The position numbers and the translations under genes are program-made. DNA of 63,777 nucleotides, filler included, from Sandaracinaceae bacterium (lineage in GTDB: Bacteria; Myxococcota_A; Polyangia; Polyangiales; JADJQN01), in NCBI GenBank assembly GCA_947483975.1. It is 18 parts of 18 records of this genome, joined end to end, with 100 filler letters (N's around TTAATTAATTAA, not from the genome) between each part and the next. Parts side by side here need not be neighbours in the genome. Positions count along the whole stretch, not along the records: positions 1 to 3,570 come from CANKOL010000474.1; 17 more parts are not named here. One strand, 5' to 3'. The notes below the pieces were generated by a model. That model did no database searches. It was not told where the DNA came from and saw only the letters and a list, made by a program, of their open reading frames with translations. This document shows, piece by piece, positions 1 to 3,570 of the stretch. The first letter of the stretch is position 1. Each line of letters begins with the position of its first letter.

Positions 1-1
1 C

Positions 2-85
2 GCCGAGCGCTGCGACCGCGTCGTGCGCGTCGTCGACGGGCTCATCGTGAGCGACGGGCCGCCGAACGGCGCCGCGCACGGCTGA
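2..85 (+). CDS. C-terminal end of an ABC transporter ATP-binding protein (LolD/MacB-like), partial
   Basis: Frame reads AERCDRVVRVVDGLIVSDGPPNGAAHG*, the typical ABC ATPase tail after the H-loop. Confidence 0.7.
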   Translation, partial: AERCDRVVRVVDGLIVSDGPPNGAAHG

Positions 86-113
86 GGGCGAGCTCGCGCC
101 CTTTTCCCCTGCG

Positions 114-413
114 TCAGGGCAGGCCGGGGCCACGGCCGCGCGGGCCGCCCCAAACGGCATGGACGACGAGCGCAGAGCGCTCTGCGTCGATCAGGAAATA
201 CACATGGTGGCGCGTGCGCGGCAAGAGCACGCGGCGGTATTCGCGGCCCCCGCTCGCGTAGGCGACGGACGCGCTCGGCATCGCCGCGGCGAAGGTGAGC
301 ACCTCGGCCAGCTCCCGTGCGAAGAGGTCGGGTGCGTCGCGCCGCTCTTCGCGCCACCAGGCGTCGATCTCGCTGACGTGCCGCTCGGCCTCGAGCGTGA
401 ACTCGACCTTCAT
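114..413 (-). CDS. Type II toxin, ParE/RelE family (99 aa)
   Basis: MKVEFTLEAERHVSEIDAWW...YRRVLLPRTRHHVYF...VVHAVWGG; the ATG overlaps the upstream stop (ATGA at 410-413). Confidence 0.8.
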   Translation of the reverse strand: MKVEFTLEAERHVSEIDAWWREERRDAPDLFARELAEVLTFAAAMPSASVAYASGGREYRRVLLPRTRHHVYFLIDAERSALVVHAVWGGPRGRGPGLP

Positions 414-655
414 TCGCGCGCGCGAAGGCGGGCGAACACAAGCTCCGCAGGGACGACGTGCCCCTCGGCGGCCTGCTGCGCGCTGCGCTCCAGCGCTGCG
501 TCGAGCGCGGCCTTGTCGTCGGGGTCGAGCGCCGCGTCCGAGCCGCACACCAGCTCCGCGAGCGGGACAAGATCGACCACGGCGCCTTCCGGTAGCTCGG
601 TCGGCTCATCGAGCACGAGGCGACCTCGAAGGGAGCGTGCACGAAGCCCAGTCAT
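410..655 (-). CDS. Putative antitoxin (81 aa) coupled to the ParE-like toxin
   Basis: MTGLRARSLRGRLVLDEPTELPEGAVVDL...LDAALERSAQQAAEGHVVPAE; small acidic protein immediately upstream of the toxin with ATGA coupling. Confidence 0.75.
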   Translation of the reverse strand: MTGLRARSLRGRLVLDEPTELPEGAVVDLVPLAELVCGSDAALDPDDKAALDAALERSAQQAAEGHVVPAELVFARLRARE

Positions 656-741
656 GGCGAGATGCTGACATGGGCGCCGAGCGTCGGCGAGCGAGTGGTG
701 CCGACCGGGGAGGGCGGCCCGGCTCGCTGACCCGACGTCGT

Positions 742-1023
742 CTACCTCGCCGGGCGCCTGGACGGTGGCCGACCTCGGCGCGGGGGAGGCAGCCGCGCGC
801 TTCGGAGCAGCAGTCCCGGCTTCAGGTGAAGCGCGTCGGCGAGCCGTACGAGGATCGTGATGCTGAGGTTGGCGCTGCCGGTCTCGACCTTCTGGAGGAA
901 GCGAAGGTCCACCGTCGCCGCCTCGGCGAGCGCCTCTTGCGTCATGCCTCGCCGTGCTCGCGCCGCCTTCACGTTCGCGGCGATGGAGCGAAGGACCGAG
1001 GCGACGTGATCGCCAGCCGACAT
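742..1023 (-). CDS. XRE-family helix-turn-helix regulator (93 aa) with a basic Pro/Arg tail
   Basis: NVKAARARRGMTQEALAEAATVDLRFLQKVETGSANLSITILVRLADAL is a classic HTH_3 pattern. Confidence 0.9.
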   Translation of the reverse strand: MSAGDHVASVLRSIAANVKAARARRGMTQEALAEAATVDLRFLQKVETGSANLSITILVRLADALHLKPGLLLRSARLPPPRRGRPPSRRPAR

Positions 1024-1182
1024 CGTCGCCCGCTGTTAGCCCGTCAGTCGCGAAACAATAACGCCCTAAAAGCACGATTTATCTGGACCGTGTTTTGGGG
1101 ACCGTGTAGTGATTGCGCTCATTCGCGCGTGCCCGATGAGGGGGGCGCGACCCAACCGGACCATTGAAACAAGGAGAACCGA

Positions 1183-1284
1183 ATGACGCTCTCGATCACG
1201 ACCCACAGCTACGTCATCACCTCGGCCTGCACCTGCCCGAAGGGCTCGACAAATGCGTGCGGAGTCAACTACCGCATGGGTTGA
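1183..1284 (+). CDS. Putative RiPP precursor peptide (33 aa) MTLSITTHSYVITSACTCPKGSTNACGVNYRMG
   Basis: AAGGAGA Shine-Dalgarno at 1171-1177, ATG at 1183, TGA at 1282-1284; three Cys (C16, C18, C26) in the C-terminal half; ends 97 nt upstream of a co-oriented radical SAM/SPASM gene. Confidence 0.75.
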   Translation: MTLSITTHSYVITSACTCPKGSTNACGVNYRMG

Positions 1285-1341
1285 GTCGCTGGATGCGTGG
1301 TTCCTACTCCTGAGCGCGTAGCCGGTTTGTGCGGAACCAAC

Positions 1342-1365
1342 CACCTCTCACCTCTCACCTCTCAC
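1342..1365. repeat. (CACCTCT)x3 tandem heptamer between the precursor and maturase genes
   Basis: cacctct-cacctct-cacctct-cac read directly. Confidence 0.85.
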
Positions 1366-1381
1366 ACGAAGGCCGGGCGGG

Positions 1382-2812
1382 ATGATTGATATGCCTCGTT
1401 TTGTCATTCCGCCCGGCGTCGCTAGCCGTGGCTACACCGTTTCTGATGGGAGTCGTCTCGCCGTCGCCTACAACACGCGGCGGCAGTCGGTGACCACGCT
1501 CGAGGGGGATTCCGCCGAGGTCTACCAGCGCCTCTTCGATAGCCGCGGCGACTCGAGCGCTGCGTTGGCGTATATCGTCGAGCACGGGAGTTTCGGCGAA
1601 GGCGAAGGGGCCGTTGAGGCGGCGGCCGCGACTCTGCAGGCGTTTGCTTCGACGCTGATTGACGCAGGCTATTTGGCTCTCCACGGCGACACGGCAGCTG
1701 TGGCGCGTCAGTCGATCCGCCGCGCCGCCACGGTCGCGACCGCCGCCGATCCTCTCGAGAACGCCGAGATGCACGTCGGGCGGGTCATGGCCGATGCGCA
1801 TATCCTCTACCAGTTGGTGCTCGAGCTGACCCATCGCTGCAACGAGCGGTGCGTCCATTGCTACTGCCCTCAGGGCGTAGGCAGCGACGAGTTGACCGTC
1901 GAGCAGCTCGCGCAGCTACTCGCGGAGTTTCGTGAGCTCGGCGGGTTTCGGCTGCAGCTCACCGGCGGTGAGCTCTTCTGTCGCAAGGACCTTCATGCGA
2001 TCTTCGCGCTCGTGAAGGAGCAAGGGTTCGTCGTCGATGTGACGAGCAACCTGACGCTCCTGACACCGCAGAACCTCGACGCGCTCGTCGCGCTCGAGCC
2101 GCGATCGGTCGGTTGCTCCATCTACTCGGCGGATCCGGCTCTGCACGACGGCGTGACTCAGCTGCCAGGTTCGTGGCGTCGGTCCACGGACGCGATTCGC
2201 GAGCTGAGGTCTCGCGGCATCCCAGTGGTGCTGAAGACGCCGCTGATGAACGACACGCTCGCGGGCTGGCGCGAGGTCGAGGCGCTCGCGCTCGAGCTGG
2301 ACTGCGACTACCAGTTCGACCTCGCGCTCACGGCGCGCAACGACGGTGATGGCGAGCCGATGCGCTTTCGCGCGACCGACCGCCCGGGCATCGAGGACCT
2401 GTTCTCCTCGAGGTACTACCGGATTCGCTTCAAGGACGAGGCAGCACCGCCTCCGACGCAGCCAGACCCTGACGCGATGCTCTGCGGCGCGGGCAGCGCC
2501 GGCCTCATCGTGGGTCCGGACGGAACGATCAGACCGTGCCTCGGGCTGATGGAGCCGCTTGGGCGGTTCCCCTCGGACAGCCTGACGAAGGTCTGGCAGA
2601 AGTCGGAGTTCTTCGAACGCTGGAGCCAGCTGAGGTGGCGCGACAGTGTGCGCTGCGCATCGTGTGCCGACTCTGCGTTCTGCTTCCGGTGCCCGGGCGC
2701 GTGGGAGCTCGAGACGGGCAGCCGGACGAAGCCGCCGGATTACACCTGTATGCTGGCCTCGGCCTGGCGAGCCGCCTGGGAAGCCCAGAATCCGGGGCGC
2801 ACAGCCCCATAA
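1382..2812 (+). CDS. Radical SAM/SPASM peptide maturase with an N-terminal RRE(PqqD)-like extension (476 aa)
   Basis: CNERCVHC (CxxxCxxC), LTGGE; SPASM Cys set CGAG...DGTIRPC...CASCADSAFCFRC...YTC; about 100-aa N-terminal extension with a beta-strand-then-helix pattern ending LIDAGYL. Confidence 0.9.
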   Translation: MIDMPRFVIPPGVASRGYTVSDGSRLAVAYNTRRQSVTTLEGDSAEVYQRLFDSRGDSSAALAYIVEHGSFGEGEGAVEAAAATLQAFASTLIDAGYLALHGDTAAVARQSIRRAATVATAADPLENAEMHVGRVMADAHILYQLVLELTHRCNERCVHCYCPQGVGSDELTVEQLAQLLAEFRELGGFRLQLTGGELFCRKDLHAIFALVKEQGFVVDVTSNLTLLTPQNLDALVALEPRSVGCSIYSADPALHDGVTQLPGSWRRSTDAIRELRSRGIPVVLKTPLMNDTLAGWREVEALALELDCDYQFDLALTARNDGDGEPMRFRATDRPGIEDLFSSRYYRIRFKDEAAPPPTQPDPDAMLCGAGSAGLIVGPDGTIRPCLGLMEPLGRFPSDSLTKVWQKSEFFERWSQLRWRDSVRCASCADSAFCFRCPGAWELETGSRTKPPDYTCMLASAWRAAWEAQNPGRTAP

Positions 2813-2872
2813 TCCGCGCATACTGGCGAAGGCGCCGCGATGTTCGCGGTGCTGAGGAAGGCCTGAGGCGCG

Positions 2873-3235
2873 ATGGCAGACAGCGACGAGCGGGACACGC
2901 TTCCTCCGCCTCCACCTGAGGGGCGCCCGACCGGGCCGCTCGCGGACGCACACGCGCGCGACGCGGCGGCGCAGCGCGCGCACCTGCACAAGGTCGCCGA
3001 CCGGGTCCACCGCTTTCGCGTCGCGGTGTTCTTCGAGGAGCCGACGTACGCGCTCTGGCGCGAGCAGCCTGTGCACGAGCAGCGCACGACGATCACGGTG
3101 CTCGCCGCCGACGCGGACGACGCGGTCGCGCTGGCTACGGCGCGGTTCCGCGAGGACGCGATGCAGAGCAACGTCGGCTGGGTGCGGATGATCACGCGCT
3201 GCGAAGCCCACCCCGTCGGCCCTTCGGAGGAGTAG
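2873..3235 (+). CDS. Hypothetical protein (120 aa)
   Basis: Clean ORF with GC3-rich codons and a GAGG upstream; no recognised motif. Confidence 0.65.
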   Translation: MADSDERDTLPPPPPEGRPTGPLADAHARDAAAQRAHLHKVADRVHRFRVAVFFEEPTYALWREQPVHEQRTTITVLAADADDAVALATARFREDAMQSNVGWVRMITRCEAHPVGPSEE

Positions 3236-3245
3236 GGCGGTCGCG

Positions 3246-3570
3246 GTGGCTGGCCCTGGCGCGGGGAGGCTGCCGCGCGGCGGCGTGGGCTACTGCGACC
3301 GGCTCTCCGACCTCGAGCAGCTCATCTCCGTGTTCCGTACCTACTGGGCCGTCGTCGAGCCCAAGACGCCCGTGACGATGGCGGACCTCCGCGACGCCGA
3401 CCGGCTCGTGCAGCGCTTTGCGTGGGCGCTCGGGCAGCGGCAGTGCGGCGTGGCGCCGGACGCGGCGTCCGCGGACCTGCGGCAGCGCGCGTTCACGAAG
3501 CTCGTGGACGTCTACGGCCGCGTGCGGCGCGCGGTCGCCTTCGTGCGCTACGACGAGGGCGACGCGGACG
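3246..3570 (+). CDS. Hypothetical helical protein, partial (possibly an N-terminally truncated remnant)
   Basis: ...DLRQRAFTKLVDVYGRVRRAVAFVRYDEGDAD runs off the contig; weak start. Confidence 0.55.

Follow-up and report, generated by a model that had tools for sequence, protein, structure and literature searches.

The window, that is, the whole 63,777-nucleotide stretch of DNA analysed here (filler included), comes from a genome bin of a Sandaracinaceae bacterium (5.29 Mb, 524 contigs, 81% complete, 71% GC). Positions 1-3570 are one contig of this bin, and the rest consists of other contigs or N. On this contig, a 33-codon open reading frame (ORF) starts with ATG at 1183, stops with TGA at 1282-1284 and encodes MTLSITTHSYVITSACTCPKGSTNACGVNYRMG. 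It is followed 97 nt downstream, in the same orientation, by the gene of a 476-residue radical S-adenosylmethionine (SAM) enzyme. An earlier note had read the two as a candidate system for a peptide that is made by the ribosome and then modified post-translationally (RiPP), and both genes, as well as the AAGGAGA ahead of the peptide ATG, are present as it described. Table 1 lists these and the neighbouring features.

The enzyme contains two recognizable domains and an N-terminal extension. Pfam assigns Radical_SAM (PF04055) to residues 148-290 (E = 3.3e-20) and SPASM (PF13186) to residues 368-428 (23.9 bits, cut-off 21.5), the latter also matching 30/30 homologs. In a 30-sequence alignment, C153, C157 and C160 of the CX3CX2C motif are invariant, as are C368, C386 and C425, and conservation is 90% or more at C428, C434, C437 and C456, so that the seven-cysteine SPASM set is complete. 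The CxxxCxxC motif and the full SPASM cysteines named in the earlier note are conserved across these sequences. Ahead of the radical SAM core lie about 135 residues, and an N-terminal block, VAYHTPSQSV-FLEGDSAEVW, is also kept in the alignment. In AlphaFold models the N-terminus folds as three strands followed by three helices, with a predicted local distance difference test score of 85.9 for the full-length enzyme and 92.9 for its first 110 residues.

The isolated N-terminal domain best matches the lasso-peptide proteins TbiB1 (5v1v and 5v1u; E = 3.7e-4, target template-modelling (TM) score 0.74-0.77, root-mean-square deviation (rmsd) 2.7-2.8 Å) and B1 (6jx3) in the PDB. Across the TbiB1 and B1 matches, target TM scores range from 0.71 to 0.77 and rmsd from 2.7 to 3.6 Å, while the other PDB matches, further chains of these entries aside, stay at TM scores of about 0.2-0.3 except 5dnk (0.49). 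The matched structures are RiPP recognition elements (RREs) solved with the leader peptide bound. As the earlier note had anticipated, the N-terminal 95 residues of the enzyme model as an RRE, and the architecture of RRE, radical SAM and SPASM domains holds because Pfam domains, conserved cysteines and N-terminal fold matches all support it. The best fold matches of the full-length model are SuiB, SkfB, CteB, TigE and PqqE, and a sequence profile of the enzyme finds SkfB first (1.5e-21, 79.9 bits) and then PqqE (6.4e-18) in the PDB. In NCBIfam, 55 families match at E up to 1, none near its curated cut-off. The best scores are those of NirJ2 (87.6 bits, cut-off 500), PqqE TIGR02109 (83, cut-off 381.35) and MftC TIGR03962 (73.5, cut-off 265), with AhbD also among the top-scoring models, and the sactisynthase models follow with AlbA at 55.2 (cut-off 850), StsB at 43.9 (625) and SkfB at 35.7 (300). 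By cut-off, the enzyme belongs to no curated sactisynthase, PqqE or MftC family.

The small ORF has G or C at the third position of 29 of its 33 codons, and no second copy of the peptide was found in its own genome. CxC-x7-CG strings occur off frame by the dozen in the same genome, so a 33-codon ORF alone is uninformative here. That such short ORFs and strings are common at 71% GC would suit the view that the ORF is a chance frame and that the enzyme has its substrate elsewhere, a view whose probability the conservation data described below reduce to practically nil.

A word-indexed search returned 131 enzyme relatives among 8000 scored candidates. The 120 listed share 42-52% identity with the query, most cover at least 94% of it including the N-terminal region, and all are named only generically at source. 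An exhaustive search of 50%-identity representatives gave four full-length matches at 44-48% identity and then none above 37%, a drop that suggests a compact family inside a very large superfamily. We collected 160 loci around enzyme relatives, 80 of them from species-representative genomes and 80 from metagenomes (1.08 Mb). Eight of them, L001-L003 and L081-L085, carry orthologous enzymes (42-54% identity), and L003, cut off within the enzyme gene, was excluded from the adjacency count.

In all eight assessable orthologous loci (clade A: the window, L001, L002 and L081-L085; enzymes at 44-54% identity), a gene for a homologous peptide of 33-37 residues adjoins the enzyme gene. A six-frame search of the 160 loci and the window with the pattern C.C.{6,8}CG[IVLM] gave seven matches, each adjoining an orthologous enzyme. 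The peptide gene of L083, which was missed by the ORF-length filter of this search, was found by reading the L083 DNA; it starts with GTG and overlaps the last 23 nt of the enzyme gene. In L081, L082, L084 and L085, inspection of the small ORFs likewise puts a homologous peptide directly behind the enzyme gene. The peptide-first order reported in the earlier note holds for the window, the only clade-A locus with the peptide 5' of the enzyme, but not for the other seven, where it lies directly downstream of the enzyme gene or overlaps its end. A GGAG precedes the start codon by 8-12 nt in all eight peptide genes.

The association extends to a sister clade (clade B: L004, L005, L007, L025, L043, L086 and L090), in which a peptide of the family adjoins 7/7 enzymes; these enzymes are 25-33% identical to the window enzyme and 524-613 residues long as called ORFs. 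The pattern C-x7-CG[IV]-x2-[RK] has 18 matches in the 1.08 Mb, 15 of them co-oriented with an enzyme gene and ending 2-4 residues from the stop. The remaining three are out of context, and the peptide adjoins none of the roughly 145 further radical SAM loci. In a phylogeny built from 154 enzymes, from which seven loci without an ORF of at least 280 residues carrying the cluster motif (L085 among them) were omitted, the orthologs form one clade (7 tips, support 1.0) and the distant enzymes another (7 tips, support 0.975), all tips being peptide-bearing. A conserved cysteine-containing peptide, which the earlier note had asked for upstream, thus adjoins all assessable orthologous and all sister-clade enzymes. 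The 15 co-located homologs in distant taxa, 47 database peptides, a conserved Shine-Dalgarno sequence, and a frame and scaffold kept through 8-9 substitutions between strains effectively refute the chance frame. Because it is conserved beside orthologous enzymes, we count the small ORF as real: as judged from sequence conservation, 1183-1284 is a genuine gene with a conserved enzyme partner.

A profile built from the 15 peptides found 47 proteins of 31-86 residues in public protein sets, all unnamed or annotated as hypothetical, and none with a Pfam domain. For 8/47, the longest contig has the same size as that of an enzyme homolog, which suggests a shared contig but is no proof of one. The nearest, P0281, is identical to the window peptide over residues 1-16 and differs at six later positions. 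NCBIfam gave no family for the window peptide (E up to 1) or for 12 relatives (E up to 10), in line with the earlier note, which did not recognise it as PqqA, MftA, SCIFF or freyrasin. Family records are labelled Acidobacteriota, Chromatiaceae, Nitrosomonadales, Planctomycetota, Verrucomicrobiales, Flavobacteriaceae, Pelagibacteraceae, Anaerolineaceae and Methanothrix.

A C-terminal consensus, C-x-[KR]-x5-C-G-[IV]-N-Y-R-x-G, is common to the 56 unique peptides. The first conserved cysteine occurs in 56/56, and so do, counted from it, K/R (+2), the second Cys (+8), Gly (+9) and I/V (+10); R/K (+13) occurs in 55/56, Tyr (+12) in 46/56 and Asn (+11) in 38/56, and the tail after CG[IV] is exactly five residues in 47/56. 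Of the C-x-C-x7-C core proposed previously, two cysteines are invariant, whereas the first Cys of CxC is present in just 29/56. Pairwise identity within 31 clade-A-type peptides averages 0.75 over the scaffold, 0.32 over the leader and 0.16 over the five-residue loop.

Together, our results suggest that the locus encodes a minimal two-gene RiPP cassette of an apparently undescribed family, a reading to which we assign a probability of about 0.75. The pair is very probably a maturase and its substrate. We then propose a mechanistic model for this pair. The N-terminal half of the peptide (consensus M-K-L-x-V-K-x-x-R-Y) would lie as a strand on the RRE of the enzyme, and the bound leader would place the 16-residue C-terminal core in the active site, where the enzyme would abstract a hydrogen atom from the core. 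The invariant C18 and C26 could then close one or two intramolecular rings, most likely through thioethers from sulfur to carbon, the kind of link present in sactipeptides and ranthipeptides. This would yield a compact cyclic peptide displaying a hypervariable five-residue loop on a fixed scaffold at a fixed distance from the C-terminus. The cassette would be an accessory one, carried by only some strains and moving together with an XRE regulator and a ParE-like pair.

The thioether itself is tentative, at slightly below even odds, and the Thr/Ser/Asn/Tyr acceptors put forward in the earlier note are tentative too. Known enzymes of the same architecture that act on cores with invariant cysteines make sactionine or ranthionine links. 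We favour a thioether here because the two cysteines are the only invariant reactive side chains and because the nearest solved sequence is SkfB. Another view keeps the enzyme-substrate pair and gives it a different chemistry: a C-C or C-O cross-link of Tyr with Lys/Arg (streptide or ryptide type), a reaction at the C-terminal residue (as by MftC on MftA, or as PapB is able to do) or an epimerisation, with the two cysteines serving for a disulfide or metal binding. The highest NCBIfam scores indeed belong to the non-thioether enzymes NirJ2, PqqE, AhbD and MftC, and the best fold match, SuiB, is a Lys-Trp cross-linker. The near-fixed K/R, Tyr and R/K positions (56/56, 46/56 and 55/56) and the constant distance to the C-terminus (47/56) could also be read in this way. 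According to PMC12373016, the radical SAM maturase PapB can couple a Cys thiol with a C-terminal residue. However, 10/56 peptides have Q, H, T, A or D in place of the Tyr, one strain has Cys there, only the two cysteines are invariant side chains with obvious radical cross-linking roles, and the best PDB sequence match, SkfB, is a thioether former. We consider such other chemistries unlikely on balance, though serious.

A cofactor role, in which the peptide would be a precursor like PqqA or MftA and a small redox cofactor would be made from the CG[IV]NYR stretch, seems very improbable. The MftA C-terminus is C-G-V-Y, the conserved motif of the present peptides likewise sits at the C-terminus, and two of the curated families with the highest scores are PqqE and MftC. 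However, the enzyme falls far short of their cut-offs of 381 and 265, clade A lacks conserved pathway genes such as a peptidase, an oxidase or a cofactor-using enzyme, the distribution is patchy and strain-variable, and a hypervariable loop would be unexpected in a cofactor precursor.

Several observations weigh against the two-gene RiPP cassette and its proposed thioether. The adjacency count covers 15 loci, compared with 120 enzyme homologs among the matches listed. PqqD is weak by sequence (4/30 homologs, best E 0.013), and the leader is very short, about 15 residues. The thioether would follow from the invariant cysteines and analogy; curated thioether-synthase models score below NirJ2, PqqE and MftC for this enzyme, and no acceptor residue is invariant (Asn 38/56, Tyr 46/56). 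The earlier remark that the contig shows no protease or exporter was weak on its own because the contig is only 3570 bp, but in the longer ortholog loci, too, no protease, exporter or immunity gene is conserved, so that a secreted product is not evident. The form lacking the cassette, described below, is one metagenome contig. Lastly, an RNA library (run X20) holds 5% of the sampled words and a single 151-nt contig of depth 3, covering 1211-1321, which is too little for a claim of expression.

The natural variation of the locus was followed by placing metagenome contigs from four runs on the stretch, which is present in lake and freshwater metagenomes (13 runs with at least half of the sampled words, from four studies). 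Run X4 contains an identical copy of 438-2513. Another X4 contig, 1172 nt long, connects 1-93 with 2814-3570 through 153 other bases that replace 94-2813. This variable block is bounded on the left 20 nt past the stop codon of the ParE-like ORF and on the right 1 nt after that of the enzyme. GC content is 58-69% over 1050-2850 and 72-75% in the flanks. In 40 relatives drawn from the genus, family and order of this bacterium, no ortholog was found, only three distant matches at 31-35% identity. Given the absence from these relatives, the presence/absence contig and the lower GC, the best reading is that the cassette is accessory and lies on a strain-variable island. Comparison of 2814-3570 with same-genus and same-family genomes gave only short spurious matches, and thus no empty site is shown there. 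No convincing flanking repeats were found at the borders 94 and 2813 in the GC-rich background. A 30-nt inverted repeat, 87% complementary, is found at 12-41 and 3100-3129, near the contig ends and outside the variable cassette.

In the variants of runs X5 and X8, differences cluster in the upstream region 1087-1167 (10 substitutions and 3 indels) and in the peptide gene (8-9 substitutions in 102 nt). The peptide-gene changes comprise a silent one at 1206 in the leader, the seven at 1244, 1246 and 1252-1256 that give G21A, S22T, N24G and A25Q in the loop, and, in X5 only, one at 1271 that gives Y30C. Reading frame, leader and both family-wide cysteines are kept. The 1431-nt enzyme gene has four listed substitutions and at most 12, the X5 contig having eight unlisted differences within 1-2922. 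In X5, the codon of F88 (1643-1645), invariant in the RRE alignment, is TTA (Leu). The X20 contig mentioned above spans the greater part of the peptide gene plus the 37 nt that follow, and then jumps 1097 nt to 2419-2458 with four shared letters at the joint, which may be an artefact or a real joined form.

The intergenic DNA also differs between strains. X5 and X8 contigs carry a 7-nt deletion at 1342, i.e. one CACCTCT copy fewer in the spacer between peptide and enzyme genes; the predicted RNA fold of this spacer is less structured than shuffled sequences (z = +1.85). The two GGACCGTGT copies upstream of the peptide gene start 14 nt apart, and in X5 both have A→G at the third base (1087 and 1101). 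We infer that the repeat is a candidate operator or promoter element, and it could be an operator varying in step with something else. Over 600-3570, a promoter scan found no promoter-like site, and a terminator scan found one site, on the wrong strand in the peptide start region and not above shuffles.

Table 1 Features of the locus and of related loci (positions of the window unless a locus is named)
Feature	Position	Strand	Basis or remark
AAGGAGA, Shine-Dalgarno-like	1171-1177	+	5 nt ahead of peptide ATG
Putative precursor peptide gene, 33 residues	1183-1284	+	Leader-like half, core and variable loop
Leader-like half of peptide, residues 1-15	1183-1227	+	L3 and Y10 invariant in 8 orthologs
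Predicted peptide core, residues 16-33	1228-1281	+	Family scaffold C18, K20, C26, G27, V28, N29, Y30, R31
Variable loop of peptide, residues 21-25	1243-1257	+	
CACCTCT, three tandem copies in the 97-nt spacer	1342-1362	+	Copy number differs between strains
Probable maturase, 476 residues (RRE, radical SAM, SPASM)	1382-2812	+	Pfam, alignment, structure models
Predicted RRE of enzyme, residues 1-95	1382-1666	+	Predicted structure
CX3CX2C of enzyme, residues 153-160	1838-1861	+	Alignment
SPASM cysteines of enzyme, residues 368-456	2483-2749	+	Alignment
Direct repeat GGACCGTGT, two copies	1085-1093, 1099-1107		Lower-GC divergent intergenic region, 58-63% GC
XRE-family helix-turn-helix regulator, 93 residues	742-1023	-	Pfam HTH_3, E 7.2e-11; divergent from peptide gene
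Putative type II toxin-antitoxin pair	114-655	-	Weak matches; antitoxin-like and ParE-like ORFs overlap
Antitoxin-like ORF, 81 residues	410-655	-	RelN antitoxin, E 0.13
ParE-like ORF, 100 residues	114-416	-	ParE_toxin, E 0.011, 16.7 bits vs cut-off 23, full profile length
Strain-variable cassette (toxin-antitoxin-like pair, regulator, peptide, maturase)	94-2813		Run X4 contig, GC
Clade-B extra protein	L004 6155-7153; L005 6238-7317; L007 5235-6161		
Clade-B extra protein	L025 3332-4171; L043 3512-4582; L086 3667-4605		
GT9 glycosyltransferase, heptosyltransferase-like	L043 4579-5541; L086 4602-5516; L082 (clade A) 1652-2920		3' of peptide

As in the window, a divergent XRE gene stands ahead of the enzyme in L001, L081 and L083, i.e. 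in 4/8 assessable loci with the window; the XRE proteins of L081 and L083 are 73% identical, and the window regulator matches only that of L001, weakly. No other neighbour is shared among clade-A loci. It could be imagined that the product, instead of being a secreted natural product, works within the cell in a defence or addiction module on a mobile island, the modified peptide acting as effector or signal under XRE control. The lack of a conserved exporter or protease would fit such a role, as would the regulator and ParE-like pair in the window, resolvases near L081 and L083, presence and absence between strains, the hypervariable loop and the absence of orthologs from the 40 relatives. However, PADLOC gave only generic matches (pVip on the radical SAM core, 41.8 bits, and helix-turn-helix control proteins). 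Viral contigs contained no ortholog, only six distant relatives at 24-32% identity, and no neighbour is conserved beyond the regulator. We regard this role as improbable; it is compatible with the biochemistry of a two-gene RiPP cassette.

Comparison with known systems places the cassette near several of them. The SCIFF or thermocellin system (peptide CteA, maturase CteB; a ranthipeptide) is likewise minimal, pairing one short Cys-bearing peptide with one maturase, and is not known to have a protease or exporter of its own. CteB shares the RRE, radical SAM and SPASM architecture and matches the fold of the window enzyme (5wgg, E = 2.4e-12). In contrast to SCIFF, the window peptide has no NCBIfam match, no SCIFF maturase model is among the 25 best enzyme matches, and the six cysteines of SCIFF are replaced by two or three in C-x-[KR]-x5-CG[IV]NYR, alongside a hypervariable loop and a leader that is only about 15 residues long. 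By record titles, the present family also belongs mainly to environmental Gram-negative lineages. SkfB and AlbA share conserved substrate cysteines with this system, and SkfB is the best PDB sequence match and second-best fold match, but the enzyme scores far under the cut-offs of the SkfB, AlbA and StsB families. Unlike their substrates, the peptide has only seven residues after its last Cys and no long acceptor-bearing hairpin half, and the locus has no exporter or immunity genes.

PqqE/PqqA and MftC/MftA, among the top curated scores, resemble the pair in having a short substrate with a conserved C-terminal motif that is recognised by an RRE-type domain (PqqD, weakly detectable here), and differ from it in their other pathway genes, absent here, as well as in the sub-cut-off scores, strain-variable distribution and hypervariable loop of the present system. 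SuiB of the streptide system (5v1q_B) is the best full-length fold match, at E = 2.2e-14, with the N-terminal domain included in the roughly 495 aligned columns. The cross-link of streptide joins Lys and Trp; the identity to SuiB is only 13-14%, and the present peptide has no conserved Trp. The N-terminal domain has its best fold matches in the leader-bound stand-alone RREs of lasso peptides (TbiB1 and related B1 proteins); it differs from them in being fused to a radical SAM enzyme and is 12-18% identical.

We regard the pair as a new family of an already known type, judging by sequence comparison, because the peptide has no Pfam or NCBIfam model, the enzyme lies under every cut-off and our literature search gave no match. 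A literature search, outside of which subscription-only papers lie, found nothing on the peptide family, and the literal strings CGINYR, CGISYR, CGITYR, CGVNYR and CGINHR occurred in no paper it covered. The first four are absent from one supplement of a 15,000-enzyme compendium (PMC10288494), whose figures and other supplements may contain the family. PMC13692751 describes a different, protein-sized Cys-rich substrate in methanogens.

It is conceivable, although rather doubtful, that the CG[IV]NYR peptides form a RiPP class of their own, with an undescribed ring chemistry, a rigid 16-residue scaffold and a fast-evolving loop, carried on an island cassette for strain-level antagonism or recognition and tailored further in the sister clade. 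If so, the linkage might run through the C-terminal residue at its fixed distance or through the invariant Lys/Arg, the island with its toxin-antitoxin-like pair would mark only some strains of the lake population, and the additional sister-clade genes described below would provide a further tailoring step. As a minimal cassette of an undescribed family, the system is compact, one enzyme and a 33-residue substrate, and suits heterologous expression. Public data already hold at least 56 natural core variants, all unnamed or hypothetical, whose hosts are mostly uncultured freshwater, soil and marine microbes. A fixed two-cysteine scaffold with a free five-residue loop is the type of frame used to display and engineer peptides. 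Default gene calling hides the gene that defines such systems.

The joint ancestor of the two peptide-bearing clades has a poor support of 0.55 and also spans nine other loci, four of which have a different upstream peptide, with no candidate seen in the other five. These four (L011 3386-3535, L052 3146-3283, L060 2642-2791 and L071 3381-3500) share a conserved peptide of 39-49 residues that contains GSYAAGC and ends in C-x-x-CER; their enzymes form a neighbouring radical SAM/SPASM group from Muribaculaceae, Paludibacteraceae and other gut bins. Several cores of the sister clade (L004, L007 and several database peptides) contain SGCGKS, the Walker A string of ABC-transporter ATPases. The literature search returned this string in ABC-transporter papers only, and the likeness may be coincidence.

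In 6/7 clade-B loci, an extra conserved protein of 280-360 residues adjoins the enzyme-peptide pair. It has no Pfam or NCBIfam match, and the only pointer from a language-model look-alike search is a weak one, to a cluster that is MchC/SelO-like (score 0.93). The GT9 glycosyltransferases that follow the peptide in two clade-B loci and one clade-A locus (Table 1) are hints of glycosylation in part of the peptide family.

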